From contig CBDFJQ010000002.1 in NCBI GenBank assembly GCA_965248575.1, positions 3,929,375-3,993,374 on the forward strand: a DNA stretch of 64,000 nt. Reading direction: 5' to 3'. The translations under genes and the position numbers were made by a program. Shown piece by piece: positions 26,886 to 43,224 of the stretch (its first letter is position 1; each line of letters opens with the position of its first letter). Source of the DNA: Planctomycetota bacterium (GTDB lineage: Bacteria > Planctomycetota > B15-G4). A model generated the notes under the pieces. The model was not told where the DNA came from and did not search any database. It worked only from the letters and a program-made list of their open reading frames with translations.

Positions 26886-26890
26886 ATGCC

Positions 26891-27757: not shown

Positions 27758-27798
27758 AATGGCGACTAGTTCAAGAGAGCCAAGGCGTTACGCCGCAC

Positions 27799-27862: not shown

Positions 27863-27875
27863 AGACGGAACAGTC

Positions 27876-28158: not shown

Positions 28159-28160
28159 GG

Positions 28161-28572: not shown

Positions 28573-28591
28573 GCACGAAGGGGGAGTACTG

Positions 28592-29107
28592 ATGCCCGTT
28601 CGATTCGAATGCTCGAAATGCGGACAGGACATCTCGTCGTTCATGCGCGTTGGAGAGACTGCGGAATGTCCATCATGCGGCGCGCGAGTGCAGGTACCTG
28701 CTTCGGCGGAGCGCAGAGGACTTACCTATGAGCCGTCGCAAAGAGGGGGCTACCCAGCGCCGACGATCGCTGACGGGCCCCCGGCGGAGTCGATACCACA
28801 TGCTGAGGCTTTCACCGTGAGGCGGATCCAGGCACGGACGATTCTCCAACTATCTCTGATCGGCCACCTCTGCTTCTGCATTCCGGCTTTTCTGCTCGTG
28901 GGGCTTGGGGCAGCCCTCGGATTCGAGGGCTGGTCGGTAACGTGGAATGACGAACCCGTGACTGGAGTCATGGCCGTGCTTGTAGCTCTGCCTCTTGGCG
29001 TAGGCGCAGGGCTCGGATCCGGCCTCGCCAATGGAACCGTCGCCTGCATTGGCCTCTGGATCTACTCCAGGTTTCGGTGGGTGACGGTCCACTATGCGCG
29101 AGCGTAG
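28592..29107 (+). CDS. integron cassette ORF 10: zinc-ribbon plus transmembrane protein
   Basis: N-terminal CSKCGQ...CPSCGARV (Cx2C...Cx2C) followed by hydrophobic helices. Confidence 0.55.
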   Translation: MPVRFECSKCGQDISSFMRVGETAECPSCGARVQVPASAERRGLTYEPSQRGGYPAPTIADGPPAESIPHAEAFTVRRIQARTILQLSLIGHLCFCIPAFLLVGLGAALGFEGWSVTWNDEPVTGVMAVLVALPLGVGAGLGSGLANGTVACIGLWIYSRFRWVTVHYARA

Positions 29108-29113
29108 CATTGC

Positions 29114-29180
29114 GTCTAGCAAGCGCTTGCGGCGGACTGTCCGCTGCGCGTCCCGCCGCTGAATCGCAACGACGTTAGGC
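29114..29180 (+). repeat. attC site 10 (GTCTAGC ... GTTAGGC), type A variant
   Basis: Same repeat family. Confidence 0.7.
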
Positions 29181-29193
29181 AGAGCAACTGACG

Positions 29194-29613
29194 ATGATCG
29201 AATTCCAGCTGTTGCCCAGAACCTCGGACGGGACAGAAGAGCCACAGCTCTGGTTTCGGGTGCGGCTACGCGGTGAGTTCACAGGAGAGCTCGACCTGCA
29301 ATTGGAGACAGCTGAAGTTCTCTCGTTTGTTGAGCAGCTCGCAGGCTTTCCGAGGTCAACAGAGCAGGTTGAATCGGCAAGGCTCGTCGACCGGCACGCA
29401 GCCAGGTTTGCCGATTTCGAAGTTTCCTGCATCGATCGATCGGGGCATGTCCGCGTTGCAGCCAGCCTTGGGTCGGGTTCAGGGCAGTTTGGCGCTCCTG
29501 TCTGGGACACGGTCACAGCCAACGTCGCAGCCGTTGCGGCTGAGATCGACGTGTTTCAGAAGCAGCTTGTAGCGATCATCAAAGGGATTGAGTCCCATGC
29601 GCGCCTTGCCTAA
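29194..29613 (+). CDS. integron cassette ORF 11: hypothetical protein
   Basis: 139-aa ORF; no recognised motif. Confidence 0.5.
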   Translation: MIEFQLLPRTSDGTEEPQLWFRVRLRGEFTGELDLQLETAEVLSFVEQLAGFPRSTEQVESARLVDRHAARFADFEVSCIDRSGHVRVAASLGSGSGQFGAPVWDTVTANVAAVAAEIDVFQKQLVAIIKGIESHARLA

Positions 29614-29670
29614 CAAGTGCGTGCAGCGGACACCGCTCTGCGGCGCAGCTGACCCACTGAGTCGGTAGAT
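29608..29670 (+). repeat. attC site 11 (GCCTAAC ... GGTAGAT), divergent 3' half
   Basis: 5' half matches type A; 3' half diverged, adjoining a lower-GC cassette. Confidence 0.5.
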
Positions 29671-29686
29671 ATATGAACGGTGTTTA

Positions 29687-30199
29687 ATGAACGAAAAGCA
29701 ACCACGAATAATGCCATCCACTGAGTCCCAATCTCTACCAGGTAAGGGCAAGTCAGGCCGGTTCTGGCAAGGGTTCTGGCTTATATTCCTAGTGGTTTCA
29801 CTTGCCTACGCTTGGTACTCCTTCTATGCGCCTTCCAACCGCATCGCCTGGGCCGATAACTTCACGGCTGCGCAACAACAGGCAGTCAAGTCTGACAAAC
29901 CGATGATTCTCTTTTTCACTGGCAAGTGGTGTTCACCCTGCCAGATCATGAAACGTCAAGTCTGGGCGGATGAACAGGTGATGGCTGCGGTCAATGAGGC
30001 GTTCATCCCTGTGACGATTGACGTGGATGACCCTAATGCGGCCTCGGCATTGAGTCGGTACGGTGTTGGCCTAACGCCAACCACTATCATCACGGATTCA
30101 AAAGGGAATGTCTTGCAACGGAACCACGGGAGGATGAGCAAAACCGAATTCCTCGAATTGTTAGGTGAGATTGATCCATCGACCGTCGAAGATCTGTAA
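29687..30199 (+). CDS. integron cassette ORF 12: thioredoxin-fold protein (WCSPC active site), lower-GC cassette
   Basis: MILFFTGKWCSPCQIMKRQVWADEQV...: CxxC thioredoxin-like motif; N-terminal TM anchor; composition visibly AT-richer than flanks. Confidence 0.65.
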   Translation: MNEKQPRIMPSTESQSLPGKGKSGRFWQGFWLIFLVVSLAYAWYSFYAPSNRIAWADNFTAAQQQAVKSDKPMILFFTGKWCSPCQIMKRQVWADEQVMAAVNEAFIPVTIDVDDPNAASALSRYGVGLTPTTIITDSKGNVLQRNHGRMSKTEFLELLGEIDPSTVEDL

Positions 30200-30251
30200 T
30201 GCTAAGCGACTGCACCGTCTCTCTTCGGGCAATCATTGGTTTCGTTGGACT

Positions 30252-30312
30252 ATCTAACCATTCGTTGCACCAGACCGGCTTCGCCGACAGGTGAACGGCA
30301 AACCCGTTAGCC
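30252..30312 (+). repeat. attC site 12 (ATCTAAC ... GTTAGCC), distinct sequence type
   Basis: Bounded by canonical cores; internal sequence unlike types A/B. Confidence 0.6.
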
Positions 30313-30330
30313 AGATCAACTGAGGTTATC

Positions 30331-31116
30331 GTGGGCACTGCTCCCAGCAATCTCCGATGTCGAATAACGGATGCCGTGTGCAAAGCGTTACGGCCGTTGC
30401 CCCATGTGTTCGCCGGATGGGAGGGCGGGAGCGCTGCCTTCGATCTCGTGGATGAGTACTCCGACATAGACTTGAACTTCTTGTTGGATGACGCGGCCCT
30501 GGTCGATTCCCTTTATGCCGTTGTCGAGTCTGCACTCGAGACTGTGTCGCCGATTTCTACCACCCACTTTGAGCCCCCCGGCCGCTACTACAAATTGAGG
30601 GATGGTGGAGATTTCCTCCTGGTCGATGTGTGCATCTACCAGCCTGGGTCGCTCAGCGAGTGCCTCGACGTTGATCGTCACGGGAAAATTCGGCAGCTCT
30701 TCGACAAGGGGCAGTGGCTACGCAGCGAGACCTCAAGCGTGGTGTCCCAGCGAGCTACCCGAGCCAAGCGTCGGGACGATCTCGAAGAGTGGTTTTCCGT
30801 GAGTCAGAGTTTTGTCCGCAAGGCAATCATGCGCGGCCACGAGGTGGAGGCCTTGGCGGCGTTCTGGGGTTACACGCTCAAGCCACTCGTGGAAATTCTT
30901 CGCATGCGGTATTGCCCCGCACGATGGGACTTCGGCATGCGCTATCTGCAGAGAGATCTTCCAGGTCCTGTGTACGATGAGCTGCGGGGCATCATGTTTG
31001 TCGGAGAGTCTGTCGACCTAGCGGAAAAACTAGCGAAGGCGGTCGCATGGGGAGAGAGGCTACTGAGAGAATCTAAGCCGGGCAGTGAGATTGGACCTTC
31101 GCCAAGGGCTGGCTAA
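30331..31116 (+). CDS. integron cassette ORF 13: nucleotidyltransferase-fold protein
   Basis: GWEGGSAAFDLVDEYSDIDLNF fits the GS-x(n)-D-x-D minimal nucleotidyltransferase motif; substrate unknown. GTG start. Confidence 0.55.
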   Translation: MGTAPSNLRCRITDAVCKALRPLPHVFAGWEGGSAAFDLVDEYSDIDLNFLLDDAALVDSLYAVVESALETVSPISTTHFEPPGRYYKLRDGGDFLLVDVCIYQPGSLSECLDVDRHGKIRQLFDKGQWLRSETSSVVSQRATRAKRRDDLEEWFSVSQSFVRKAIMRGHEVEALAAFWGYTLKPLVEILRMRYCPARWDFGMRYLQRDLPGPVYDELRGIMFVGESVDLAEKLAKAVAWGERLLRESKPGSEIGPSPRAG

Positions 31117-31239
31117 CAAGGCGCTGCAGCTGACCGGCTCATGCGTCGGCGTTCCCAGGTTCTGGTAGTCTCTCGAACACGAAGGCGTTTCGAGGCCGGG
31201 GGCAAATCCCGCTGGCATCTGAGCGCCGGTCCGTTAGCT
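31111..31239 (+). repeat. attC site 13, long form (GGCTAAC ... GTTAGCT)
   Basis: About 129 bp between inverse core and core. Confidence 0.55.
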
Positions 31240-31255
31240 GGGCCAAGGAGCGACC

Positions 31256-31540
31256 GTGTCCAAACCAGCCAAGCTGTCGCTCGTGATGGCGGTGATCGCG
31301 ATGCTCCTGGCAGCTCCATTGTTGGGGGGGCACCAGTTGAGCGTGCATGGTGATCCATACACGTACATCTTCTTCCTCCCGAACATCGTTCCGCTGTTGG
31401 TACTTGAGTCGGCAGGCTATTTGCCAACAGATCACGAGTTGCTTGCGGCTGCCTCCAGTGTCGGGTTCTGGGTCATCACTGGAGCTGCGATTGGGTGGGT
31501 TTCAGTCTGGCGAACCCGAGGAGATCAAGATGCCACATAG
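31256..31540 (+). CDS. integron cassette ORF 14: small membrane protein
   Basis: GTG start; 94-aa hydrophobic ORF. Confidence 0.5.
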   Translation: MSKPAKLSLVMAVIAMLLAAPLLGGHQLSVHGDPYTYIFFLPNIVPLLVLESAGYLPTDHELLAAASSVGFWVITGAAIGWVSVWRTRGDQDAT

Positions 31541-31543
31541 CCA

Positions 31544-31605
31544 GCTACCAGCCGTAGCGGACGGACCGGGCTACGCCCGTCCGCTGAACGGCAGATACGT
31601 TAGCC
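31544..31605 (+). repeat. attC site 14, type B (AGCTACC ... GTTAGCC)
   Basis: agctaccagccgtagcggacggaccgggctacgcccgtccgctgaacggcagatacgttagcc. Confidence 0.7.
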
Positions 31606-31618
31606 GGATCAGGGAGGG

Positions 31619-32095
31619 GTGTTCGATATGTCTAGCCAAGATGTTGCCTCGTTCGTACTGAGGCTCTTGGGCGTCTTATTGCTCGTGACCTCGATTCCGA
31701 TTGCGATGGCCGTCATTGCTGACCAAGGGGGCCCCGGCTTGGGACCACTGACGGCGTCTGTCCTTGTTGGAGTGGCCCTCATTGTTTGGAGTCGGCCGCT
31801 CGGCAGTCGAATCGCTCCGAGCCCTGGCAAGCCCTCCGATGCGAAAGCATTGTCTGTCACGGACTGGCAGGCCATCGCCTTCTCGGCAATCGGCATCATG
31901 GTCATCGTGCGCAGCCTTGAGGCCTTCGCCGACAGTTACTTTCGATCCGAGGCGTTCGGAGCAGAGTTGTGGCCATGGCCCTTCACGGCGGTCCCCCTCT
32001 TGCAGTTGGTGGTTGGAGTCCTCCTGTTCTTCCAAGGGAGGGGTTTGGCCGCCTTCTGGCGCCGTTCGCAAGGAGACGGCGGTTCCAGCGGCTGA
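31619..32095 (+). CDS. integron cassette ORF 15: hypothetical membrane protein
   Basis: 158-aa ORF with 4 hydrophobic segments. Confidence 0.5.
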   Translation: MFDMSSQDVASFVLRLLGVLLLVTSIPIAMAVIADQGGPGLGPLTASVLVGVALIVWSRPLGSRIAPSPGKPSDAKALSVTDWQAIAFSAIGIMVIVRSLEAFADSYFRSEAFGAELWPWPFTAVPLLQLVVGVLLFFQGRGLAAFWRRSQGDGGSSG

Positions 32096-32156
32096 CACGC
32101 GCAAGCAACGGACGGTCCGCTGCGCGCCCCGCCGCTGAACCGCAGATGTGTTAGAC
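32091..32156 (+). repeat. attC site 15, type A variant (... GTTAGAC)
   Basis: gcaagcaacggacggtccgctgcgcgccccgccgctgaaccgcagatgtgttagac. Confidence 0.65.
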
Positions 32157-32178
32157 AGAGTTAGAGAGGAGGAACACG

Positions 32179-32673
32179 ATGGCTGACAGCAACGGCTCGT
32201 CCGTCCAGCGCGCTGCCCAAGCGAGGCGAGATCTCCTGCCTTCGTGGTTGAGGTCCATCTGCGTTCTCGTGGTTCCACTCTCGCTAGCAACCGTAGCGCT
32301 TCTCGCGACCGGCGTTCTCAAGCCCGACTCCTTCGACTTGAAGCTCCTCGGCATCGCCTACGGCGCGCTTTCACAGCCCGCCGCATTGGCCAGCCAGGTT
32401 TTCGTCATTGCGCTGGGTGTCTCCGCTGTTGGTTTGCTCCGCGGCGATGTGTGGGCTCTTGGTCTAGCGAGCTTCCTCAGCATTGTCGGCGTCGCCATGG
32501 CGCCGAGCGTCATCGAGTTCACTGAACCAGGATTCCATCTGAGGTTCGATGCACTGATCTTCGTTTCTCTCATCATTGCCCTGGAAAGGCGTCGAGCAGG
32601 ATGGAAGGCCGTCACAAGATCCAACCCTGTCAAACAAGAGCTTGCAGCGGATGCCGCTCCACCTAACCGCTGA
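32179..32673 (+). CDS. integron cassette ORF 16: hypothetical membrane protein; coding sequence reads through the 5' half of its attC
   Basis: 164-aa ORF; C-terminal ...VKQELAADAAPPNR is encoded by the attC-like sequence caaacaagagcttgcagcgg... Confidence 0.5.
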   Translation: MADSNGSSVQRAAQARRDLLPSWLRSICVLVVPLSLATVALLATGVLKPDSFDLKLLGIAYGALSQPAALASQVFVIALGVSAVGLLRGDVWALGLASFLSIVGVAMAPSVIEFTEPGFHLRFDALIFVSLIIALERRRAGWKAVTRSNPVKQELAADAAPPNR

Positions 32674-32691
32674 ACCACTGAGACGTTGGAC
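32629..32691 (+). repeat. attC site 16, short type A variant (GTCAAAC ... GTTGGAC)
   Basis: Same family, diverged. Confidence 0.55.
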
Positions 32692-32713
32692 GGAGCATTC
32701 AACCTTGGGTCCA

Positions 32714-32959
32714 ATGTCGCCAAGAGTCCTGATGTCAGGTTCCGCGATCGTCGTTGCGGACGTTGGATTTGGGATGGTCATCTGGGGGACCACGGCCTGT
32801 GCCATGAGGGACGAGAGGCTCGGCTGGTGGGGTAGGGTCATGGCCCCAGTCCTTCTTCTCCACGCATTCGGTTTCTGGGTGGTGATGCGAGCGGCCCCGT
32901 GGCTCAAGAGAGCTTCGGACGACAGAGATCAGTTTGCGGGAGGCTCCGGTGCGAGTTGA
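32714..32959 (+). CDS. integron cassette ORF 17: small membrane protein (shares a cassette with ORF 18)
   Basis: 81-aa hydrophobic ORF; no attC between it and the next ORF. Confidence 0.4.
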   Translation: MSPRVLMSGSAIVVADVGFGMVIWGTTACAMRDERLGWWGRVMAPVLLLHAFGFWVVMRAAPWLKRASDDRDQFAGGSGAS

Positions 32960-33536
32960 ATGTCTACTCTGGGACTTCGGGGACACGCTCTGCGACGAGC
33001 TCTCGCTCTGGCGCGCGACCCCCGAATGGATGGATGTCTACCGCTCGTTCGACGATGGGCTTGGCGCCGCTTGGAGCCTGGGCGAGCTCGACACTCCCGG
33101 CTTCGTGGCTGAGTTGGCCAAGCGCATGCCGCTTGCCGAAGCGGAGATCCTCGCGCACTTGAACCGCACCGATCTCTTCGAGTTCTTTCCGTTCACCTAT
33201 GCGTTCTTTCGCGACCGCCACCTTCCCCAGGCCATCGTGACCGTGAATCCCACCTTCTTCTCCGAGGTCGTTGTGCCCGGCTGCGCCTTGGACAACGTCA
33301 CGGACGCTATCGTCGTTTCGGGAGAAGAAGGGACGATTGACAAGGGTGAGCTCTGTCACCGAGCCCTTCAACGCATGGACTTCGACTCTGACCCTTCTCA
33401 CGCGTTGCTGATCGACAACAAGAAATCCAACCTCGACGCCTGGGCGAAGCGAGGCGGTGTCGGGTATTTGTATACGACCGATTCTGCGTTTCGACAGGAC
33501 GTTGCCCGCGGCATTGATCACCTCAGAGAGCGTTAG
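32949..33536 (+). CDS. integron cassette ORF 18: HAD-like hydrolase-fold protein
   Basis: GTG start; (M)RVECLLWDFGDTLCDE resembles HAD motif I; C-terminal LLIDNKKSNLDAWAKRGGVGYLY resembles motifs III/IV. Tentative. Confidence 0.5.
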   Translation: MRVECLLWDFGDTLCDELSLWRATPEWMDVYRSFDDGLGAAWSLGELDTPGFVAELAKRMPLAEAEILAHLNRTDLFEFFPFTYAFFRDRHLPQAIVTVNPTFFSEVVVPGCALDNVTDAIVVSGEEGTIDKGELCHRALQRMDFDSDPSHALLIDNKKSNLDAWAKRGGVGYLYTTDSAFRQDVARGIDHLRER

Positions 33537-33557
33537 GAATCCACGCGCTGGGTCGCC

Positions 33558-33692
33558 CTCTAACAAGCGGTTGCAGGTGACGACCAACAGTTCGCCTCAA
33601 TCGATCCGTGGTACGGTTCTGGCGGCGGGTGCTGCGCCCAAGCGTTCGCGGTCAACGCTGTTGGGCGCAGCTGAATCGCATGTCCGTTGGTC
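33558..33692 (+). repeat. attC site 18, long form (CTCTAAC ... GTTGGTC)
   Basis: About 135 bp, distinct internal sequence. Confidence 0.5.
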
Positions 33693-33719
33693 CGACCTCA
33701 ATCTGTTCTTTTCCGGTAG

Positions 33720-34274
33720 GTGCACGAGTTGAAACGGGTGGTAGTTCTTGACTACGACGCGGCCTGGGCCACGGTCTTCCAGGGGTTGCGTTTACCTGTG
33801 TGGAGTGCTCTTTCTGACATCGCGATCTCCGTGGAGCACGTTGGGAGCACAGCCGTCCCGGGCCTGGCAGCCAAGCCCGTGATTGACTTTGACGTGGTCG
33901 TCCCACAAAGCGAGCAAGCAGAGGCTATCGCGCGACTCTCTTCGCTTGGTTACGTGCACCGGGGTGACTTGGGAGTGCCGCAGCGGGAGGCGTTCCGTCC
34001 TCCGAAGGGTTCTCCGCATCACCATCTCTACCTCTGCCTGCCGACGAGTCCTGCACACGCCAACCACATCGCAATCCGTGACCATCTTCGCGCTCACCCT
34101 ACGGATGCAATGGCCTACGGGGACCTCAAGAGGCGTCTTGCTCAAGAGTTCCCCCACGACATGGACGGGTACATAGAGGGTAAGACCGGTTTCCTGGTCG
34201 CGATTCTTCGCAGGCTTGGCTTTGCGGAGGAAGCTTTGGGCAGCATCGAGCGAATGAACCACCGACCAGGCTAA
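33720..34274 (+). CDS. integron cassette ORF 19: GrpB-family (UPF0157) protein
   Basis: GTG start; ...ISVEHVGSTAVPGLAAKPVIDFDVVV... and overall length match the GrpB family. Confidence 0.7.
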   Translation: MHELKRVVVLDYDAAWATVFQGLRLPVWSALSDIAISVEHVGSTAVPGLAAKPVIDFDVVVPQSEQAEAIARLSSLGYVHRGDLGVPQREAFRPPKGSPHHHLYLCLPTSPAHANHIAIRDHLRAHPTDAMAYGDLKRRLAQEFPHDMDGYIEGKTGFLVAILRRLGFAEEALGSIERMNHRPG

Positions 34275-34411
34275 GCCGGTGAGCCAACACCCCCCTGGGG
34301 CAGACGGAGTCCTTGTCAAACCCGCTGCCCCAGCGCGATACTGTGCGTGAAGTGCGTGGAAGCAACCGGACGCGACAAGGCCTCCGTTGCTGAACCGCAT
34401 GTCCGTTAGGC
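34269..34411 (+). repeat. attC site 19, long form (GGCTAAG ... GTTAGGC)
   Basis: About 143 bp; canonical R' core. Confidence 0.5.
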
Positions 34412-34437
34412 GGTGATTCTGAGCGGCAAGGAGAAGC

Positions 34438-34824
34438 ATGTCCAAACTCGTGATGGGCCTCGGCGTGTTCATTATTCTCGCGAGTCTGTGGGTCCTGGTG
34501 TTTCCGGAGCAACTCGTGTCGCTCACGGACTGGGAATCGCGAGAAATGCTCTACGTCGCAGCCGGGATGAGGGTCGTGATCGGGCTTGTCCTGGTCCTGT
34601 CCGCTTCGTCTACGAGGTCTCCCACGGGCATTCGGGTCGTCGGCGGCCTGACCGTTCTCGCTGGCATCGGCCTTCTGTTCATTCCAATCGATTTGTGGAG
34701 GGACCTGATTCAGTATTGGCTCGTTGACAACCTCGCCATGTATCGCTTCGGTGGTGGGGCATTCGGAATACTGATTGGCGCCTTCTTCGTGCATGCATCC
34801 TCGCCCAAGACGCCTTCCGCCTGA
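34438..34824 (+). CDS. integron cassette ORF 20: hypothetical membrane protein
   Basis: 128-aa ORF with 4 hydrophobic segments. Confidence 0.5.
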   Translation: MSKLVMGLGVFIILASLWVLVFPEQLVSLTDWESREMLYVAAGMRVVIGLVLVLSASSTRSPTGIRVVGGLTVLAGIGLLFIPIDLWRDLIQYWLVDNLAMYRFGGGAFGILIGAFFVHASSPKTPSA

Positions 34825-34885
34825 GATGCGCTTGCAGCGAATCGTCCGCTGTGCGCCCCACCGCTGAATCGCAGATACGTAAGCC
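34818..34885 (+). repeat. attC site 20, type A variant (GCCTGAG ... GTAAGCC)
   Basis: gcgcttgcagcgaatcgtccgctgtgcgccccaccgctgaatcgcagatacgtaagcc. Confidence 0.6.
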
Positions 34886-34899
34886 ACGGAGTAGGGCAA

Positions 34900-35262
34900 T
34901 TGATCAAGTTCATCATGTGTTTGAGGCGCCGCCGAGGGATGACCCGCGAGGACTTCAAGGAGTACTGGAAGAACAAGCACGGCCCGTTCTTCATGAAGAA
35001 TGCAGAGAAGATGGGTGCCAAGAAATACGTGCAGTCTTACACCTTGAATACGCCACTGAATGAAGGCCTCAGGACTTCCAGGGGTATGCTTCCTGAATAT
35101 GATGGTCTTGCGGAAGTCTGGTTCGATTCAGAAGAAGCACTCCTGGAGGGAATGAGTTCTCCGGAAGGGCAACGACTGGGCGCGGCCTTGCTGGAGGATG
35201 AGGGCAACTTCATCGATCACTCGAAGTCCTCGGCGTTCATTGTTGAAGAGCACGAGTTCTAG
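34900..35262 (+). CDS. integron cassette ORF 21: EthD-like (dimeric alpha/beta-barrel) protein, lower-GC
   Basis: ...DGLAEVWFDSEEALLEGMSSPEGQRLGAALLEDEGNFIDHSKSSAFIVEEHEF matches the EthD-family C-terminal pattern; TTG start in track, ATG 34915 alternative. Confidence 0.6.
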   Translation: MIKFIMCLRRRRGMTREDFKEYWKNKHGPFFMKNAEKMGAKKYVQSYTLNTPLNEGLRTSRGMLPEYDGLAEVWFDSEEALLEGMSSPEGQRLGAALLEDEGNFIDHSKSSAFIVEEHEF

Positions 35263-35291
35263 AGTCGCTGGCCCAACCGGACGAGGTATCT

Positions 35292-35819
35292 GTGGGACAA
35301 CTCCCAGAACTGCCTTCGGACAGCGACCTTGAGATCCTCACGCCGCGTCTGAAACTGGTGCCGATGCGCAGCGTGCACGCTGCGATCATGTTCCCCGTTC
35401 TGTCGGACGCCAAGCTCTACGAGTTCATCGGCGGTTCCCCTCCGTCTTCAGAAGAGTCGCTTGCGGATGTCTACGCCTCACGGGAATCGCGTCGATCGCC
35501 CGGTGGCGACCAACTTTGGCTCAACTGGCTCATGTGGGAGTCAGAGCAAGGGGAGGCCGTGGGATACACGCAGGCAACGGTCCATCCGACGCACGCCTAC
35601 GTGGCTTGGCTCGTTGACACGCGGTGGCAAGGTCTTGGCCATGCGTCTGAAGCGGCAACGGCTCTCGTGAGGTGGCTGGTTGCACTAGGTGTGCAAGAGA
35701 TTCGGGCGTGTGTGAACCTGGGCCACACGGCCAGTCGACGAGTGGCGCACAACGCTGGTCTGCGCATGACCAAGGACTTCATCGATGGTGAGGAAGCGTG
35801 GGCGTATCGTGCTCCGTGA
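35292..35819 (+). CDS. integron cassette ORF 22: GNAT-family N-acetyltransferase (RimJ/RimL-like)
   Basis: GTG start; LETPRLKLVP-like N-terminus (ILTPRLKLVPM) and acetyl-CoA-binding-like WQGLGHASEAATALVRW; no attC between ORF 21 and 22. Confidence 0.65.
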   Translation: MGQLPELPSDSDLEILTPRLKLVPMRSVHAAIMFPVLSDAKLYEFIGGSPPSSEESLADVYASRESRRSPGGDQLWLNWLMWESEQGEAVGYTQATVHPTHAYVAWLVDTRWQGLGHASEAATALVRWLVALGVQEIRACVNLGHTASRRVAHNAGLRMTKDFIDGEEAWAYRAP

Positions 35820-35829
35820 CGACCGGTTT

Positions 35830-35900
35830 CGGCTCCTGCATAGGGCATCAAGGAGACGCCGAGCATGGGCGTCGCTCCCTGCCATCTGAGCGGGTTAGAA
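35830..35900 (+). repeat. degenerate attC-like site 22 (ends GTTAGAA)
   Basis: 3' end ...catctgagcgggttagaa resembles the 3' end of attC 13; 5' inverse core not recognisable. Confidence 0.3.
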
Positions 35901-35938
35901 TTCTGCCCAGCCCGGCGGAGCCCACCATCCCACCCCTC

Positions 35939-36160
35939 TTGAAATTCGGCGTCCCCTTGGGCCTGCTGGTCGTCGGCGTCCTCGTCCACTTCCTGGCAAA
36001 GGCCTACGACCGGGCGCGCGTCCGGTGGGCGCAGCGACGTGACCGCGCCTCGGCCGCATGGGTCGGGGGCCTGGCGATCTGCCTCATCGCCGCAGGGCTT
36101 GGCGTAGCCTTCCTGGTGGCAGGGCTGCTCATGGTCGTGTCGATGCCGATGGGGTTCTAA
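35939..36160 (+). CDS. integron cassette ORF 23 (last): small membrane protein
   Basis: TTG start after attC-like core; hydrophobic 73-aa product; stop TAA inside a TTCTAAC inverse-core-like heptamer with no downstream R' core, marking the array end. Confidence 0.4.
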   Translation: MKFGVPLGLLVVGVLVHFLAKAYDRARVRWAQRRDRASAAWVGGLAICLIAAGLGVAFLVAGLLMVVSMPMGF

Positions 36161-36458
36161 CGGTCGCCACACCGGGCATCTGGGTGCTCAGCTTGGAGTC
36201 CTTCTGATCGGTCGTATGGCCAGCCAGCCATGCAAGCAGTCCTGCCCCCTGATCCCTGGTGCCCTGTACAAGACCGGCCCCCTGTGGGAGAACAGGCTGA
36301 TTCGATCAGCCGCTCCGGAGTCACCTGCGGCAGGTCGCTTCAGTCGGGCGGGACCGACGAATGCACCCCAGTCAGGGCAAGACATGCGCGAGGCCGTTGC
36401 CCGTGCGCGTTGCGCTCCCTTTGCGTTCGTCGGAACATGAACCAGAAGAGGAAGCACG

Positions 36459-38234
36459 ATGACCAACAGGCTGCACGCGTTCCTTTCCATCGCTCTGGCG
36501 ATCCTGATTCCGGCGACTGAGGCGGGCGCTCAAGAGCCTTCTCAGCAGCCCTCTCGAATGGCTGCGCCGCTCGTCCAGATGCATGCCGAGGCTTCGGCCG
36601 GCCTGCTCTGGCACACCGCGCGTTCGTCCGGTGCGCTGACGCTGTCGGTCTCTGGGCCTGCCGACTTCTCGCACCAAGCGCAGTTCGAGCGGGGCGCCAC
36701 GCCCTTCTTGCCGCTCGTGAACAGCTTGGGGCAACGGCTGCCGGACGGCCTCTACAGCTATGAGTTCGTGGAGCGCCTGGAGTTCGCCCCGCACCTCGCC
36801 GCGGGTCTGCGTTCGGCGCGGCAAGCGGGCGATGAGGCGCTGGTCCAATCGCTCCTGGCGAGCGAGGGCACACCGCCCACTGCGACGAAGCAGACAGGAT
36901 TCTTCCGCGTGCACGAGGGCTTGATCGTGACGCCCGACTCGCTCAGCGAGTCCACGGCGTCTGTCTCGAGCGGCCCCCAGGTGGACGTCGGCGATCCGGC
37001 CGTGTCCAAGCCTCCGTTCGGGGACGACGACGACGACGGCGATGGCGACGGTGACGGCGACGACTTCTGGCCCGGGGACGGTGGGATCCCGGAGGACCAG
37101 GTCATCCTCGACGACCTGATCGTGGACGGTAACCTGTGCGCGGGGATTGACTGTGTGGACGGCGAGTCCTTCAGTACAGACACCCTCCGGCTCAAGGCCA
37201 ACAACCTTCGCATCCACTTCGACGACACGAGTAGCTCGGCCTCCTTTCCCCGGAACGACTGGAGGATCGAGGTCAACGACGACGCAAACGGCGGAGCGGA
37301 CTACTTCGGGATCGAGGACACCACTGCGGGAAGGATGCCTTTCCGGGTGCTGGCAGGCGCGCAGGACGACGCGCTCTTCCTCACGTCCAACAAGGTGGGC
37401 TTCGGGACGGCGGCGCCCGTCGTGGAACTGCACGTCGTCGACGGGGACACACCGACGCTGCGTCTGGATCAGGACGGCAGCAACGGCTTCACGCCCCAGA
37501 CATGGGACGTCGCCGGTAACGAGGCTGGCTTCTTCATCCGCGATGTGACCAACGGTTCCACCCTGCCGTTCCGGCTCATCGACGGCGCTCCATCCAGCAG
37601 CATCCACATCGGATCGAATGGTGATGTGGGCTTCGGCAGTTCCTCTCCCCAACATCCCATCCACGTGCGGCGTTTGGACGGCACGGCCAAGATCCTGGTA
37701 GAGGAGCTTACGAGCACGCCTGACGACCGGTCGCTGCTGGAGCTGAGCAACGAAGGCGGCGTGGCCATCGACCTGACGAACACCCGCCTGGGCAACATGT
37801 GGTCGCTGGGTACCAGCAACGCCGACGAGTTCCGTATCACCACCGACGGGTTGACCCAGCTCCGGCTGGATGACGACGGGAACCTGTCCGTGCCAGGAGC
37901 TATGAACCAGCTCTCGGATGTGGGCGCCAAGCACGGTTTCGAGCCCGTGGACGGCGCCGAGATCCTGGAGAAAGTGGTCAGCCTGCCCTTGAGCAGCTGG
38001 AGCTACCGGCACGACGACACCGAGGCCCGCCACCTCGGGCCCATGGCGCAGGACTTCAGGGCGGCCTTTGCGCTGGGCGCCGATGAACGACACATCGCAC
38101 CCATGGACGTGAGCGGCGTCACTCTCGTGGCGGTGCAGCAGTTGAACAGCAGGATCCTTGAGTTGGAGAGCCTGGTGGGTGCACTCAGCGCCCGCCTGGA
38201 AGCACTCGAAGCCGCGCAGTCGGAGGCAAAGTGA
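36459..38234 (+). CDS. secreted tail-fibre-like protein with C-terminal intramolecular chaperone (peptidase S74-like) domain
   Basis: Signal peptide MTNRLHAFLSIALAILIPATEAGAQ; acidic tract DDDDDGDGDGDGDD; C-terminal ...SLPLSSWSYRHDDTEARHLGPMAQDFRAAFALGADERHIAPMDVSGVTLVAVQQLNSRILELESLVGALSARLEALEAAQ matches the self-cleaving chaperone domain of phage tail spikes. Confidence 0.7.
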   Translation: MTNRLHAFLSIALAILIPATEAGAQEPSQQPSRMAAPLVQMHAEASAGLLWHTARSSGALTLSVSGPADFSHQAQFERGATPFLPLVNSLGQRLPDGLYSYEFVERLEFAPHLAAGLRSARQAGDEALVQSLLASEGTPPTATKQTGFFRVHEGLIVTPDSLSESTASVSSGPQVDVGDPAVSKPPFGDDDDDGDGDGDGDDFWPGDGGIPEDQVILDDLIVDGNLCAGIDCVDGESFSTDTLRLKANNLRIHFDDTSSSASFPRNDWRIEVNDDANGGADYFGIEDTTAGRMPFRVLAGAQDDALFLTSNKVGFGTAAPVVELHVVDGDTPTLRLDQDGSNGFTPQTWDVAGNEAGFFIRDVTNGSTLPFRLIDGAPSSSIHIGSNGDVGFGSSSPQHPIHVRRLDGTAKILVEELTSTPDDRSLLELSNEGGVAIDLTNTRLGNMWSLGTSNADEFRITTDGLTQLRLDDDGNLSVPGAMNQLSDVGAKHGFEPVDGAEILEKVVSLPLSSWSYRHDDTEARHLGPMAQDFRAAFALGADERHIAPMDVSGVTLVAVQQLNSRILELESLVGALSARLEALEAAQSEAK

Positions 38235-39700
38235 TGAGCAAGCACCACGACACCGAGTGCCGCAACGACCTGTACCAAACAACCGGGGCCGCGCAGATGC
38301 GAGGTCTCAGGATTCCCCAGGAAGCTTCTGCCGTGACGACCGCGTTCCGCTGGACGACGTCCCTCTGCCTCACCCTTTGCCTCGGTCTAGGCATGACGCA
38401 GGCCGCCGCAGCCCAAGTGCTCGACGGCAGCTTCGAAGGCCAGACCGCCTCAGTGCCCTTGGCCGCGCCCTGGATCGTGGGCAACATCTTCCAGGTCGCG
38501 GCCCCGGACGGGGCGGACGACGACGGGGGCATGCCCAAGCAGGGCGACCAGTGGGCGTCGCTGACCACCATGGGTTCGACGAACACGACACCGCCCGACA
38601 ACCCCGGGGGCGTCACGACACCGTCCGCGGGCGGCAGAGGCATCCAGCAAAACTTCAGCTACGGCACGGAGGGCACAGGGCTCTCGTTCTCGGCGAGCTT
38701 CCTGGATGGGGAAGGCAACGACATCATCAACGATTGGATGAGCGTCGACGTCAGCGATGGGATCACCACCGTGAACCTCTTCTACATGGACAGCTTCCTG
38801 GCGGCAGAGCTGCCCGTGGCCTTCTCCAGCGCTTACCCAGAGTTGCCGATCACGCAGCGCTTCGACGTCTCCGCCGATCTGCTGGAGCTGTTCCCGGCTT
38901 CGACAGGGGCGACGGTGTTCACCCTCAGCGCGTTGATGGGCAACGACCAGGACAGCGGCTTTCAATCCCGTGGATACGTCGACGACTTCGAGCTCGGCCT
39001 GGCGGCCCCGACCATCGTGCTGGGTGACCGCGTCAAGGGCATGGTGAGCGAGGGCGACGGCTCCCGATTCCGCTTCGAAGCAACCGCCGGGACCCTGCTG
39101 TCGCTCAAGGCAGTGCGTTCCGGAGGCGACCTCCAGCCGGGGATCATGCTCACCGCTCCCAGCGGGGGCGTGCTGCTGACGCCTGCCGTCAGCGTGCTGT
39201 CCAGCAAGGCTGCGGGCACCAAGAAGTTTCCCCTGACGGAGACCGGTGTCTATGTGGTCGATGTCATGAGCCAGGCGGGCAGCGGGCCCTACTCCCTGAA
39301 GAGCAAGGCCAAGGCGGTGACCAAGGTGAAGGAGATCCTCTCGATCGGGGCCGTGGAGGGGACGTCGACCGTCTTCGCCCTCGACGCCGTGGCTGGGACC
39401 GTCCTCAAGCGCTTGACCGTGGCGAGCCTCAAGCCCAAGGGTGACTTCGCCATGATCGACGGGCTACCGGCCGACCTGTTCCCGGTCTTCCTGCCGGGGA
39501 TGGATCCGGACGGCGACCCGCTCGTCTTCGAAGCGACCGCCAACAAGTCGGGCCGCAAGGTCACCGTGAAGAACCTCAACCTCCCGCTCGTGGGAACCTA
39601 CGAGTTCGAAGTGGGCGGTGACGACGGGAGCATCGGCTACGCAAAGGCGTTGGCCAAACTCTCCGTCCCCAAGGGAAAGAGCACGGTCGAGATCCCGTAG
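38234..39700 (+). CDS. secreted hypothetical protein
   Basis: ATG overlaps the upstream stop (TGATG); signal-like segment AFRWTTSLCLTLCLGLGMTQAAAAQ some 30 residues in, so the true start may be downstream (e.g. GTG near 38333). Confidence 0.55.
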   Translation: MSKHHDTECRNDLYQTTGAAQMRGLRIPQEASAVTTAFRWTTSLCLTLCLGLGMTQAAAAQVLDGSFEGQTASVPLAAPWIVGNIFQVAAPDGADDDGGMPKQGDQWASLTTMGSTNTTPPDNPGGVTTPSAGGRGIQQNFSYGTEGTGLSFSASFLDGEGNDIINDWMSVDVSDGITTVNLFYMDSFLAAELPVAFSSAYPELPITQRFDVSADLLELFPASTGATVFTLSALMGNDQDSGFQSRGYVDDFELGLAAPTIVLGDRVKGMVSEGDGSRFRFEATAGTLLSLKAVRSGGDLQPGIMLTAPSGGVLLTPAVSVLSSKAAGTKKFPLTETGVYVVDVMSQAGSGPYSLKSKAKAVTKVKEILSIGAVEGTSTVFALDAVAGTVLKRLTVASLKPKGDFAMIDGLPADLFPVFLPGMDPDGDPLVFEATANKSGRKVTVKNLNLPLVGTYEFEVGGDDGSIGYAKALAKLSVPKGKSTVEIP

Positions 39701-39724
39701 GTGAGGGCGAAGCGAGGCGCGGTG

Positions 39725-41542
39725 ATGTTGCGTGGCAGCATCCGTGCGCTGTGCTTCGGCTTCGCACTGAGCTGCCTCGTCGCTTGTGACGGTGTCTCCG
39801 ACGCTAGGCCCGTCACCGCCGAGCTGGATACTGCGCTCTCGGTCGTGGAGTCGGAAGCCTCACGCGAGGCAACGATTGCAGGGGAGGCAGAGGGGGAGAT
39901 CGAGGCCGATCTGTTCACGGACGTCGCCGACGCCGTCGGCCTCGACTTCGTGCACTTCAATGGCATGTCCGGACGCTTTGCCCTGCCTGAGATCAGCGGG
40001 TCGGGGGCGGCCCTGCTGGACTACGACCGCGACGGGGATCTCGACGCGTACCTCGTCCAGGGAGCGGCGCTGCATCCGGAGGACGAGCCATGGTTCCCAC
40101 CCGTCGGTCCGCTGCCGACCGCTGACCGGCTGTTTCGCAACGAGCTCCAATCCGCAGGGCAGCGAGGCCCGCTGCGCTTCACCGATGTGACTGAAGCCAG
40201 CGGCATTCACGCCACGGGCTACGGCATGGGCGTCGCCGTGGGGGACGTTGACGATGACGGCACCCCGGACATCTACGTCACGAACCACGGGCCCAACCAG
40301 CTCTGGCGCAACAGCAGCGCGGGGCGCTTCGAGGAGGTCAGCGTCGAGGCCGGCTGTGCGGACCCCGGCTGGAGTAGTAGCGCGACCTTCGTCGACATCG
40401 ATCGGGACGGCGACCTGGACCTCTACGTGGCCAACTACGTGCGCTTCTCCGACGACGTGGACTGCTACGCCACGAGCAGCCGCCTGGACTACTGCGGCCC
40501 CCTGTCCTTCCCCGCAGTCTCGGACACGCTGTACCGGAACACGGGCGACGGCCGCTTCGAGGACGTCACCAGCCGCTCGCTCGTGGGCAACCGGCCGCGG
40601 CCCGGCTTGGGCGTGGTAGCCGCCGACCTCGACGCGGACGGCTGGCCGGACCTGTGCGTGGCGAACGACGGCGCCCCGAACCAGCTGTGGTTGAACCAGC
40701 GCGACGGGACCTTCCGAGACGACGCCTTGCTGGCGGGTGTGGCCCTGAACGCCGAGGGCAAGCCCGAGGCCAGCATGGGCATCGACGCCGGAGACTTCGA
40801 CGGCGATGGCGACGACGACCTCTTCATGACGCACCTGATGGGGGAGAGCAACACCCTCTACGTCAACGACGGCGCAGGCCTGTTCACCGACCGCTCCATC
40901 CCGCTGGGGCTCGCGAGCGCGAGCCTTGGGTCCACGGCATTTGGGACGCACTGGGTGGACCACGACAACGACGGCTGGCTGGATCTGATGGCCATGAACG
41001 GCGCCGTGCGGGTGCTCGACGACCTCGTGCGGGAGGGCGACAGGCACCCCCTCGACCAGCGCAACCAGCTGTTCCGAAACCTGGGGGGCGAGCGTTTCGA
41101 GCAGCTGACTGACCGCGCCGGCCCAGCGTTCTTGTTGCGGGAGGTGAGTCGTGGAGCCGCTTTCGGCGATCTGGACGACGACGGGCGGATCGACGTGCTG
41201 ATCATGAACAACAACGGCCGGAGCCGACTGCTCAGGAACACGGGCGCGGCGCGCCATCACTGGTTGGGGCTGAGGTTCGTTCAGAGCGAAGGGGGCCTGG
41301 ACGTCGTTGGTGTGCGCGTCGCCGTGTCGCTCCCCGATGGGCGCACTCTCTGGAGACGGACCCGACGGGATGGGAGCTATTGCTCCTCGAACGACCCGCG
41401 ACTCGTGGTCGGGCTCGGCGCGACGCCACAGGCCGAAAGTGTGCGCGCGATCTGGCCCGACGGACTCAGCGAGCAGTGGCCGTCTCCCGCTGTCGACGCC
41501 TACACCACGCTCGTGAGGGGCAGCGGAGAACCCTCCCGATGA
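39725..41542 (+). CDS. CRTAC1-family lipoprotein (FG-GAP/VCBS repeats plus ASPIC/UnbV-like C-terminus)
   Basis: Lipobox ALSCLVAC; repeated D-x-D-x-DG-x-x-D-x-Y/L calcium-binding FG-GAP-like motifs (DYDRDGDLDAYL, VGDVDDDGTPDIYV, DIDRDGDLDLYV, DLDADGWPDL, DFDGDGDDDLF, DHDNDGWLDL, DLDDDGRIDV). Confidence 0.75.
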   Translation: MLRGSIRALCFGFALSCLVACDGVSDARPVTAELDTALSVVESEASREATIAGEAEGEIEADLFTDVADAVGLDFVHFNGMSGRFALPEISGSGAALLDYDRDGDLDAYLVQGAALHPEDEPWFPPVGPLPTADRLFRNELQSAGQRGPLRFTDVTEASGIHATGYGMGVAVGDVDDDGTPDIYVTNHGPNQLWRNSSAGRFEEVSVEAGCADPGWSSSATFVDIDRDGDLDLYVANYVRFSDDVDCYATSSRLDYCGPLSFPAVSDTLYRNTGDGRFEDVTSRSLVGNRPRPGLGVVAADLDADGWPDLCVANDGAPNQLWLNQRDGTFRDDALLAGVALNAEGKPEASMGIDAGDFDGDGDDDLFMTHLMGESNTLYVNDGAGLFTDRSIPLGLASASLGSTAFGTHWVDHDNDGWLDLMAMNGAVRVLDDLVREGDRHPLDQRNQLFRNLGGERFEQLTDRAGPAFLLREVSRGAAFGDLDDDGRIDVLIMNNNGRSRLLRNTGAARHHWLGLRFVQSEGGLDVVGVRVAVSLPDGRTLWRRTRRDGSYCSSNDPRLVVGLGATPQAESVRAIWPDGLSEQWPSPAVDAYTTLVRGSGEPSR

Positions 41543-43224
41543 GCGCACCGAGGTGTGCACAGAAACATGTATCGAGGCTGCGCCTGACAGCGGGGCTCGT
41601 GGCGCTGGTGATCGGCGTGAGCAGCCCTGTGGCTCGCTCCGCATGGCATGCAACGCAAGACGGCACGCCGCCGCCAGCCGCAGCCTCACTCAGGTTGGGC
41701 GAGATCGGCCCGGGCGTCCCCGGCCTGCTGTCAGTGCCGCTGCCCGTGATTGGCGATCTCGAAGACGCGGTGCGAGAGCAGTTGAGCGAAGCCCAGGATG
41801 AGCTGCGCTTGGTTATCAAGCAGAGCCAGGGCGACGAGCAAGCCGAGCGTGGCCCGCTGCTCGCAACGGCCTACGCACACCTGGGTCGGCTGTATCACGC
41901 CTACGACCTGTGGGCTGCGGCGGCGACCTGCTACGAGAACGCCTTGCGGCTGACGCCCGGGGATCCGCGCTTGCACTATGCCCTCGCCGAGCTTGCGCGC
42001 TCGGAAGGCCGGCTCGACGCTGCGCGGACGCACTACCAGCAGGTCCTCGTGCTGCGCCCGGACGACTTGGCAGCGCTGGTGCACCTGGGCGACCTGGAGT
42101 ACACGCTCAACCGCCTTGAGGACGCGGAGCTCACGCTTCAGCAAGCGCTGCAGATCGACGAGGGCTGCGCGGCGGCGCGCGCTCTCTTGGGCCGGATCGC
42201 GCTCGCGCGCGGTGACGCGCAAGCGGCCGTTGACCAGCTCACTGTTGCACTCGAACACGCGCCCGAGGCCAACCGCCTGCACTATCCGCTGGGGATGGCC
42301 TATCGCGCGTTGGGCGACCTCGGTCGTGCGCGGGAGCACTTGGCGGCCAGCGGCGAGGTGGGCGTCACGGTGGCCTCGCCCATGGTGGCCGAGTTGCAAG
42401 CACTTGAGACCGGCGAACGATTGCACCTGTTGCGTGGACGACAGGCTTATGCGGCGGGGCGCTACAGGTCGGCGGCCGCCTCCTTTCGCCGAGCGGTTGA
42501 CGCTTCCCCCGAGAGTCGGCGGGCGCGTGTCAATCTCGGGGTTGCGCTGGCCGGCCTCGGCGACCTGGAGGGAGGGGTCGCTCAACTGCGCGAGGCGGTC
42601 CGCTTGGACCCTGAGAGCGTGGACGCGCGTTACAACCTCGGGTTGCTGCTGGCACGCGCCGGAGACGATGAGGAGGCCACCACGAGTTTGCGACAGGCTG
42701 TCCAATTGGATCCGGACGACACGGCGGCGCGGCTCGGGCTGGCCGACTTGCTGCGAAGTCGAGGGCGCAGCGCGGAAGCGCTCCAGGAGTACACCACTCT
42801 GTCGATGGCGCAGCCGACCCTTGAGCGGGCGCGCCTGGCCGAGGCTCAGCTTCTGGTGCAGTCTCGCCGTTACGCCGAAGCGCTTGAACGACTGGAAGAC
42901 GCGCACGCCCTGATGCCCTGGCAGGGGCCGATCGCCCGCGCCCTCGCGCGACTGCTGGCGGCCTGCCCCGAGGCAAAGCTGCGCGACGGTGCCCGAGCGC
43001 TGGAGCTGGCGCTCCAGGTCCACGCGAGCTCACCGACGCCGGGCCATGCGGAAACGGTGGCGCTGGCGCTGGCCGAACTCGAGCGCTGCACGGAGGCGGC
43101 GCGTTGGCAACGGGAAGCGATCCAGGCCGCCGTGGCCGCAGGCGACGACGGCCTGGCGCAGGGCTTGCAGCGAGCCTTGGCCCGCTACGAAGCGGGTGCG
43201 CCGTGCCGTCCTCCCGTCGACTGA
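41539..43224 (+). CDS. tetratricopeptide-repeat (TPR) protein, secreted
   Basis: ATG overlaps upstream stop (ATGA); repeated 34-residue TPR-like units (AYAHLGRLYHAYDLWAAAATCYENALRLTPGDP, etc.). Confidence 0.7.
   Translation: MSAPRCAQKHVSRLRLTAGLVALVIGVSSPVARSAWHATQDGTPPPAAASLRLGEIGPGVPGLLSVPLPVIGDLEDAVREQLSEAQDELRLVIKQSQGDEQAERGPLLATAYAHLGRLYHAYDLWAAAATCYENALRLTPGDPRLHYALAELARSEGRLDAARTHYQQVLVLRPDDLAALVHLGDLEYTLNRLEDAELTLQQALQIDEGCAAARALLGRIALARGDAQAAVDQLTVALEHAPEANRLHYPLGMAYRALGDLGRAREHLAASGEVGVTVASPMVAELQALETGERLHLLRGRQAYAAGRYRSAAASFRRAVDASPESRRARVNLGVALAGLGDLEGGVAQLREAVRLDPESVDARYNLGLLLARAGDDEEATTSLRQAVQLDPDDTAARLGLADLLRSRGRSAEALQEYTTLSMAQPTLERARLAEAQLLVQSRRYAEALERLEDAHALMPWQGPIARALARLLAACPEAKLRDGARALELALQVHASSPTPGHAETVALALAELERCTEAARWQREAIQAAVAAGDDGLAQGLQRALARYEAGAPCRPPVD

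Follow-up and report, generated by a model that had tools for sequence, protein, structure and literature searches.

A probable self-cleaving surface fibre of a Planctomycetota bacterium and its cellular relatives across bacterial phyla

Does a gene whose product ends in the chaperone domain of a phage tail spike belong to a phage, or to the cell in whose genome it is found? The question is raised by a locus of a Planctomycetota bacterium (GTDB lineage Bacteria; Planctomycetota; B15-G4), of which we analysed a stretch of 64,000 nucleotides (GenBank assembly GCA_965248575.1, contig CBDFJQ010000002.1, positions 3,929,375 to 3,993,374 of the forward strand), referred to here as the window and numbered from its first letter. 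The gene occupies 36459-38234 on the + strand and encodes 591 amino acids (aa), precisely the open reading frame (ORF) delimited in an initial annotation made from the letters alone. That annotation took the product for a cellular adhesin or surface fibre and not for part of a phage, and the catalytic dyad, the modelled fold, and the genomic context all lend this view support. We consider it probable that the gene specifies a homotrimeric surface fibre, exported by the Sec route, that removes its chaperone by cleaving itself; this judgement applies to the fibre and its maturation, and any specific partner or ligand that might be named for the fibre is a much less certain matter. The window gene is an ordinary member of a very large family, and it is the family-level pattern that carries the interest.

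The S74-like chaperone that had been proposed for the C-terminus is recognised by Pfam above its cut-off, with Peptidase_S74 (PF13884) matching aa 486-537 at a score of 33.3 bits (gathering score 22; E = 6.2e-8), and the S74 intramolecular chaperone (ICA) domain as a whole spans aa 486-~560 (37914-38138, like all parts of the gene on the + strand). The Ser-Lys dyad on which the proposal of a self-cleaving domain hinged is present in its SDxxxK form, as S486-D-V-G-A-K491, and both residues are invariant in 45 of 45 aligned homologues, as are H525, G527, P528, A530, F533, and F537. A profile of the family places this motif on the cleavage site A(S)DLRAK of MyRF, whose ICA domain (7DC3) is matched both by sequence profile (E = 2.7e-5) and by structure. 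The predicted structure, set against the solved MyRF domain, has the ICA fold; a helix modelled by AlphaFold2 at aa 548-590 with a predicted local distance difference test (pLDDT) of ~90 falls inside the superposition, and the C-terminal helix that closes the protein (aa 561-591 with the stop codon, 38139-38234) is the coiled-coil part of the chaperone. Trimerisation-dependent autoproteolysis is predicted at S486/K491, with the scissile bond before Ser486 (codon 37914-37916; the Lys491 codon is 37929-37931).

At the other end, aa 1-24 (36459-36530) appear to form a signal peptide of Sec/signal peptidase I type, MTNRLHAFLSIALAILIPATEAGA, cut before QE, with R4 in the n-region, AFLSIALAILI as h-region, and a c-region A-G-A at aa 22-24 ahead of Q25. 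The call is heuristic, combining hydropathy with an A-x-A-like site, and on that footing, with n-, h-, and c-regions recognised, the Sec signal peptide first reported for this protein is upheld. A signal-peptide-like N-terminus is found, again heuristically, in 191 of the 212 family members with an intact start (~90%).

The layout between these ends was defined from an alignment of 45 near-full-length homologues, an AlphaFold2 monomer model, and a comparison of the family profile with itself. An N-domain at aa 35-165 (36561-36953), a ~130-aa Ig/FN3-like beta-sandwich with a helical hairpin, is modelled with confidence and has a mean pairwise identity of 29% among the homologues. It is followed by a low-complexity linker (aa 166-208; 36954-37082) with an Asp/Gly run at aa 189-202, DDDDDGDGDGDGDD; this linker is disordered (pLDDT below 50), variable in length, and the least conserved region of the protein (17% identity). 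The shaft then consists of three modules that are mutually homologous (hhalign Prob 98%, E = 1.2e-13), an internal repeat. Module R1 (aa 209-330; 37083-37448), delimited by repeat comparison and invariant columns, ends with a capping-loop motif, VGFGTAAPVVEL (aa 313-324), and contains two cysteines, C227 and C232, that are invariant in the family alignment, a pair that fits an extracytoplasmic protein. Module R2 (aa 331-404; 37449-37670), recognised by its repeat relationship and the signature NEAGFFIRD, likewise ends with a capping-loop motif, VGFGSSSPQHPI (aa 390-401). R1 and R2 each reach 68% identity, and together they form a core (aa 209-404) conserved at that level across phyla. Module R3 (aa 405-485; 37671-37913; pLDDT 74-90), the predicted distal tip after cleavage, is variable (33%), and the S74 region stands at 50%.

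The distribution of relatives bears directly on the question of phage or cell. A search with the full-length protein returned more than 2,800 relatives, many of them 40-47% identical over 90-100% of the query; most are unnamed or called 'tail fiber domain-containing protein', and they come from metagenome-assembled genomes of Acidobacteriota and Chloroflexota and from a Roseovarius plasmid. When phmmer was run exhaustively with only the core as query (aa 209-480, S74 left out), 4,659 cluster representatives (50% identity) passed E <= 1e-3, of which 1,490 also passed E <= 1e-30. Among GTDB species representatives, at least 596 genomic stretches encode the family, in Acidobacteriota, Alpha-, Gamma-, and Deltaproteobacteria, Verrucomicrobiota, Bacteroidota, Planctomycetota, Chloroflexota, and Actinomycetota.

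Viral relatives were found only for the S74 module. All 107 matches in IMG/VR are restricted to aa ~446-591, and the core and the N-domain occur in none of 80 viral loci retrieved; a rescan of IMG/VR seeded from R1-R2 only found no relative among 2.9 million viral contigs, and the core had no tblastn match in 50,697 phage genomes. PHROGs gave weak tail-fibre matches confined to the C-terminus. Fold matches in BFVD to phage fibres with an ICA domain span 300-800 columns at 10-18% identity with low TM-scores, such scores being what is expected of flexible fibres. The fold resembles that of phage fibres, and 'tail-fibre-like' is therefore right as a structural description, for a sequence family that is cellular. 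Of the 'domesticated adhesin' suggested at the outset, the cellular fibre is supported; we do not carry over the direction from phage to cell that the phrase implies. RefSeq attaches to homologues the Gene Ontology (GO) terms 'virion attachment to host cell' and 'symbiont entry into host cell', which are probably wrong for a non-viral family bearing signal peptides.

The closest characterised relatives, as judged from sequence, are the S74-type MAT (mosaic adhesive trimer) fibres of Bdellovibrio bacteriovorus, for example Bd3182. MAT proteins carry a signal peptide, a conserved ~130-aa beta-rich N-domain, and intertwined trimeric beta-helix/prism fibres with capping loops of the pattern V-G-G/N-pi-x-x-P-x-x-x-L; 13 of 21 Bdellovibrio MATs end in an S74 terminus with SDxxxK and the rest in other tips, and Bd3182 was shown by experiment to self-cleave at S782 (Caulton et al. 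2024, Nat Microbiol; PMC10769870). The fibres are found on the predator surface, where one member binds prey glycans; by the authors' account, it has yet to be identified to which surface element the N-domain binds (PMC10769870). In Table S3 they report MATs from further 'predator-associated' taxa, among them short S74-like proteins 481-837 aa long, and the paper has no discussion of export machinery, FG-GAP proteins, or tandem arrays (PMC10769870). Later papers that use the term, as far as our literature search returned them, concern predators only. When the family profile was compared with the PDB, it matched Bd2133 (8OND) in three stretches, with E = 1.1e-11 over profile positions 343-445 (about aa 377-475, the R3 region), and more weakly a 'Cell wall surface anchor family protein' (8OJN, E = 1e-3) and Bd1334 (8OML, E = 6e-3); a single-sequence PDB search with the fibre protein returned a chance match only.

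The likeness to the S74 subgroup of MATs thus takes in the signal peptide, a beta-rich N-domain of ~130 aa, a beta-structured shaft, the capping-loop motif in the form V-G-x-G/N-x-x-x-P-x-x-x-L, and the SDxxxK end, to which can be added, for the family, a cellular origin and repertoires of several paralogues with S74 and non-S74 termini. All the defining traits of a MAT that can be checked here, namely signal peptide, homologous shaft units with their motif, and SDxxxK terminus, appear to be present in the window protein. For the N-domain, the likeness is one of size and beta-rich build, and no sequence homology is claimed: a search with a 30-sequence N-domain profile, through a word index insensitive for so divergent a domain, found just two stand-alone N-domain ORFs, and a search with a Bd2133 fragment rebuilt from the PDB alignment found no match. 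There are differences as well. The fibre protein has 591 aa, compared with ~1,000 aa, and three shaft modules only; R1-R2 are its most conserved part and the N-domain varies, whereas it is the N-domain that stays invariable in Bdellovibrio; the family occurs widely in groups that are not known to be predatory, Acidobacteriota, Roseobacters, and Acidovorax among them; and it has an FG-GAP/ASPIC(+TPR) partner and, in Roseobacters, a linkage to a type II secretion system (T2SS), neither of which is mentioned in the MAT paper. A family that stands in the databases under a misleading automatic name, with thousands of entries, invites false prophage calls, and its status as cellular, secreted, and MAT-related corrects the virion annotation.

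Other systems that use the chaperone are more remote. Phage fibres with an ICA domain, such as K1F endosialidase (3GW6) and T5 pb1 (4UW8), share the S74/ICA end with its Ser-Lys dyad and an extended architecture of the trimeric-fibre kind, but the fibre protein differs from them in having a signal peptide, no phage context, and no phage or viral sequence relative upstream of about aa 446. MyRF has the ICA fold and the cleavage-site motif in common with it, but is a eukaryotic transcription factor of the endoplasmic reticulum membrane that releases a DNA-binding trimer, not an extracellular fibre. The alveolate glycofibril TLP-12 is, as we propose for our protein, an extracellular trimeric fibre made by a cell, and its candidate proteins, which end in an ICA domain, are proposed to be folded by it (CryoSeek preprint, 10.1101/2025.09.30.679562); they are eukaryotic, with a shaft of glycosylated dodecapeptide repeats, and beyond the ICA domain no relationship in sequence is shown for them.

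Members of the family often occur in groups. Across 79 loci (78 related ones and the window) we counted 130 family genes, some of which end at contig edges, and local hidden Markov models found a fused N-domain in 77 and an S74 end in 83 of them. In 23 of the 78 genomic loci the core is repeated two to nine times on one strand; such tandem arrays comprise 2-10 paralogues, with S74 or non-S74 termini. In 17 loci a small ORF of its own encodes the N-domain, immediately ahead of short members of ~400 aa. The longest runs of short genes that we noted, 9-10 in tandem, are those of Thalassococcus profundi (L011, 1650-14904) and Thalassococcus sp. (L016, 2292-14825), which are preceded by one and two stand-alone N-domain ORFs, respectively. 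Only the first gene of each of these arrays has S74, and the others end in regions of ~100-150 aa of unassigned type, analogous to the non-S74 tips of MATs. A few sequences among the matches (P0121-P0125 and P0127) are giant proteins of 1,700-4,900 aa with two or three copies of the R1-R3 core; these could be multi-fibre polyproteins, fusions of arrays made in gene calling, or products of eukaryotic or otherwise unusual sources.

The course of events that we infer, from export and trimerisation through cleavage to surface display, with a role for partners and a ligand, would be as follows. The signal peptide (aa 1-24) would direct export and then be removed. Outside the cytoplasm, the S74/ICA domain would set three chains in register and nucleate folding of the intertwined beta-shaft, built from the three homologous ~85-aa modules R1-R3. 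After the trimer has formed, Ser486/Lys491 would cut before Ser486 and free a chaperone fragment of ~106 residues. The mature fibre would then consist of aa 25-485, with the variable R3 as its new C-terminus and distal tip, serving recognition, and the variable Ig-like N-domain as its cell-proximal end, serving anchoring. It would be co-expressed with an FG-GAP/ASPIC lipoprotein and a TPR protein, and would probably serve in adhesion or recognition, either on the cell surface or within the matrix.

These two proteins are encoded shortly downstream, by neighbours that had been described as ordinary secreted proteins. The description holds in so far as no phage genes are among them, but it overlooks that FG-GAP/ASPIC and TPR genes recur beside the family in many phyla. 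Four genes, the fibre gene first and all on the + strand, are packed stop to start (TGATG at 38232-38236, TAG-GTG at 39698-39703, ATGA at 41539-41542) and form an apparent operon. The second, at 38231-39700, starts within the overlap with the fibre stop and encodes an orphan secreted protein of at most 489 aa with a sub-threshold PPC (pre-peptidase C-terminal) match only; we rejected it as part of a conserved module because none of the 78 related loci yielded a relative. The third (39701-41542) encodes a CRTAC1-like beta-propeller of the FG-GAP/UnbV_ASPIC type (Pfam: FG-GAP_3, 9.8e-47; UnbV_ASPIC, 2.4e-11) with a lipobox, LVAC, at aa 26-29. The fourth (41539-43224), whose ATG overlaps the FG-GAP stop, encodes a protein recognised by Pfam TPR families, with an N-terminal hydrophobic anchor.

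When the ORFs of the 78 loci and the window were clustered, the single recurring cluster outside the family was FG-GAP/UnbV_ASPIC, with or without TPR. Such genes lie within 10 kb of a family gene in 30 of the 79 loci, the window's ORFs at 39701-41542 and 41380-43224 included, and FG-GAP/ASPIC genes lie within 1 kb in 21 loci, compared with ~3 expected from uniform placement over ±10 kb (binomial P ~1e-13 with close relatives collapsed, the 79 loci being in part related to one another). Pfam confirms FG-GAP_3 together with UnbV_ASPIC in examples from Verrucomicrobiota, Vicinamibacteria, Saprospiraceae, Actinomycetota, Planctomycetota, and Roseobacters. The form of the module varies: in a vicinamibacterial example TPR is a separate gene, Roseobacter propellers are fusions with an ArsP_1 permease-like membrane domain, and in two loci (L013 and L161) the TPR partner comes after FG-GAP. 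Of two loci retrieved independently, L161 has three fibres followed by FG-GAP and TPR, the order seen in the window, and L162 has two FG-GAP genes, a 586-aa gene, three fibres, and then sulfotransferase, MurJ, Wzy, and Wzz. The fibre's conserved genomic partners are thus the FG-GAP/ASPIC lipoprotein and the TPR protein, either of which may have a part in anchoring or assembly. The propellers would be tethered to the membrane in three ways: by a lipid anchor in the window, by the fused permease-like domain in Roseobacters, and by the TPR partner elsewhere.

A fixed arrangement is found in seven Roseobacter genomic loci and on the Roseovarius faecimaris plasmid pMME07001. It runs from a complete T2SS (gspD-N and an A24 prepilin peptidase) through two SEL1 genes, an N-domain ORF, and a short fibre to a sulfotransferase, a methyltransferase, the FG-GAP/permease fusion, and DUF2793, and around it lie rfbABCD and genes for glycosyltransferases. 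Outside the Roseobacter group, T2SS genes within 10 kb of the family were limited to a single GspD (L077) and a single GspE (L029). The plasmid itself (NZ_CP034347.1; L159/L160), a non-mobilizable replicon of 76 kb, has eight family genes and a complete T2SS, together with the FG-GAP/permease fusion, two sulfotransferases, a 2,051-aa autotransporter, a LuxR regulator, rfbABCD, and many glycosyltransferases, and looks to be given over to the cell surface. The DUF2793 protein is encoded there directly after the FG-GAP gene.

Other plasmid matches include plasmids of Leisingera sp. M527 and Rhodobacteraceae bacterium M382, both of which come from a study of polysaccharide-rich 'biofilm plasmids' (PMC10090131), a link that gives circumstantial backing to a role at the surface or in attachment. 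Sulfotransferase genes adjoin the fibre/FG-GAP module in L162 (16448-21725), an unrelated metagenomic contig, and in L159 (7216-8061 and 17067-18359), and their recurrence hints that the surface structure in question also contains sulfated glycans. A sulfatase gene is present in the window at 5437-6786, far from the fibre module.

It is conceivable, although we would put it forward only tentatively, that fibre, FG-GAP/ASPIC propeller, and TPR protein make up an unrecognised surface-fibre system across phyla, in which the propeller would dock or assemble the fibre and the T2SS of Roseobacters would export the trimer. If so, the propeller would be the surface element still missing from the account of the MAT authors, a folded and self-processed trimer would leave Roseobacter cells through an adjacent, dedicated T2SS, and MAT-type fibres would be a general bacterial adhesion device, not a predator speciality. 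The breadth of a MAT-like family in non-predators, its conserved middle, the FG-GAP/ASPIC(+TPR) partner, and the Roseobacter T2SS linkage appear to be undescribed in the literature we searched. They would widen a class of fibres studied so far in predators only to abundant soil and marine lineages (Acidobacteriota, Roseobacters), and the FG-GAP/ASPIC(+TPR) neighbour and the Roseobacter T2SS are testable candidates for the means by which MATs cross the outer membrane and are anchored to the cell.

Several observations weigh against the reading of the window protein as a trimeric fibre with a recognition tip. The most conserved part is the middle of the fibre, both ends being variable, unlike the MAT paradigm, and R1-R2, not the tip, might therefore be the functional surface. 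In the AlphaFold2 monomer the R1-R2 core is modelled with low confidence (pLDDT 55-68), and with such a core in a monomer model the trimeric beta-helix that the initial annotation proposed to look for is a geometry that we infer and do not see, while the fibre-like build and the ICA fold are borne out; values of this kind are expected of a chain that folds solely as an intertwined oligomer. Finally, the window holds a single fibre copy, and neither T2SS nor other export machinery was found near the fibre gene within it.

The conserved middle also speaks for the best-surviving alternative, a secreted trimeric lectin or depolymerase, similar to the phage tailspikes that bear S74, which would act on the cell's own exopolysaccharide or matrix and not as an outward-facing adhesin, with R1-R2 as its active or binding site. 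Not only are R1-R2 68% identical across phyla, they are rich in invariant Asp, Asn, Thr, Trp, and Glu; an S74 domain is the classical terminus of endosialidases and of further depolymerases among the tailspikes (Schulz et al. 2010, cited in PMC10769870); and polysaccharide genes lie near family members, such as Wzy, Wzz, and MurJ with a sulfotransferase in L162, glycosyltransferases with rfbABCD on the Roseovarius plasmid, and sugar-nucleotide enzymes in ~7 loci each. Pfam and NCBIfam, however, find no catalytic-domain signature, the modules, short repeats with homology to the shaft units of MATs, do not make up a large beta-helix enzyme, and for the MAT with a known ligand, which binds glycans, no catalysis is reported (PMC10769870). 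We regard an enzyme or lectin of this kind as unlikely, and a surface fibre as the better account.

Considerably less likely is that the protein is the receptor-binding fibre of a tailocin, an extracellular contractile injection system (eCIS), or a gene transfer agent encoded elsewhere in the genome. The fold-level likeness to phage fibres with an ICA domain would suit such a particle, and PF13884 is reported from eCIS-associated fibres (PMC8213781). The DUF2793 protein beside the module on the Roseovarius plasmid would be a lead in the same direction, as this domain is linked to the tail fibre of the Rhodobacter gene transfer agent. Yet virion fibres and phage-derived particles are assembled in the cytoplasm, and hence no secretion signal is expected on their parts, whereas the window protein and ~90% of the family bear signal peptides. 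Sheath, tube, baseplate, and capsid genes are absent from the window, the Roseovarius locus, and L161/L162, and arrays of up to 10 paralogues are ill suited to a single particle.

The tail-fibre gene of a prophage or phage remnant is less probable again, for all that the NCBI name and GO terms of homologues, the weak C-terminal PHROG matches, and an integrase gene 12 kb upstream seem to speak for one. That gene, intI (23535-24692, + strand; TIGR02249, 416 bits against a cut-off of 265), encodes an integron integrase with a cassette array, not a phage integrase, and is the sole recombinase in the window. With Pfam or PHROGs run on essentially every sizeable ORF of the 64 kb, no capsid, terminase, portal, tail, baseplate, sheath, or tube family was found, in line with the non-phage context first described for the gene; what is found instead is a histone-deacetylase-family enzyme, a HAD hydrolase, AIM24, TruB, the sulfatase, an M14 peptidase, an ECF sigma factor, a hybrid histidine kinase, a Ser/Thr kinase, and a beta-lactamase-fold protein. 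The codon composition of the fibre gene is host-like (GC at third codon positions, GC3, 0.84), its product has a signal peptide, and its core is absent from all the phage and viral collections searched.

The integron, a chromosomal one, raises one last alternative. Downstream of intI, a covariance model built from clear attC copies locates 18 attC sites at 25229-34892 (+ strand), each of ~80 nt and with a strongly conserved imperfect palindrome; intI lies on the strand of the cassette ORFs, the 'inverted' arrangement and not the usual divergent one, and the cassettes, low in GC (0.58-0.62), include GrpB, EthD, and GNAT proteins. Past the last attC come three small low-GC ORFs on the + strand (EthD, 34900-35262; GNAT, 35292-35819; a hydrophobic 120-aa peptide, 35798-36160), which may be old cassettes with decayed attC sites, the fossil end of the array. 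The fibre gene had been placed about 300 bp after the last cassette; it begins 299 bp past the last of these small ORFs, but 1,567 bp past the end of the last attC. That it is itself a final, unusually large cassette is hardly credible, since its position on the same strand close to the tract is offset by the failure of a model that recovers 18 sites upstream to find any attC from 34893 to 42000 (E below 0.28), by a GC of 0.66 and GC3 of 0.84 compared with 0.58-0.62 and 0.71-0.80 in the cassettes, and by the presence of the fibre, FG-GAP, and TPR module in other genomes without an integron. The nearness of the fibre gene to the integron looks coincidental.

As for signals and the rest of the window, a ribosome-binding site, GAGGAAG (36448-36454, + strand), is read 4 nt before the ATG of the fibre gene, and a scan for sigma-70 promoters and terminators around the gene gave nothing above chance. 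NCBIfam has no model that matches the fibre protein or its neighbours, PADLOC found no defence-system match in the four-gene cluster beyond generic TPR noise, and tRNA and Rfam scans of the 64 kb were empty. Four other large ORFs of host-like GC3, at 551-2488, 11603-14890, 21481-23331, and 46076-47599 (645, 1,095, 616, and 507 aa), are matched by nothing in Pfam or PHROGs. An ORF of 636 aa on the - strand (36372-38282), antisense to the whole fibre gene, was rejected as a shadow artefact of high GC and not a gene; a shadow of this kind also lies opposite homologues in 22 other loci, where it was clustered as a false 'family'.

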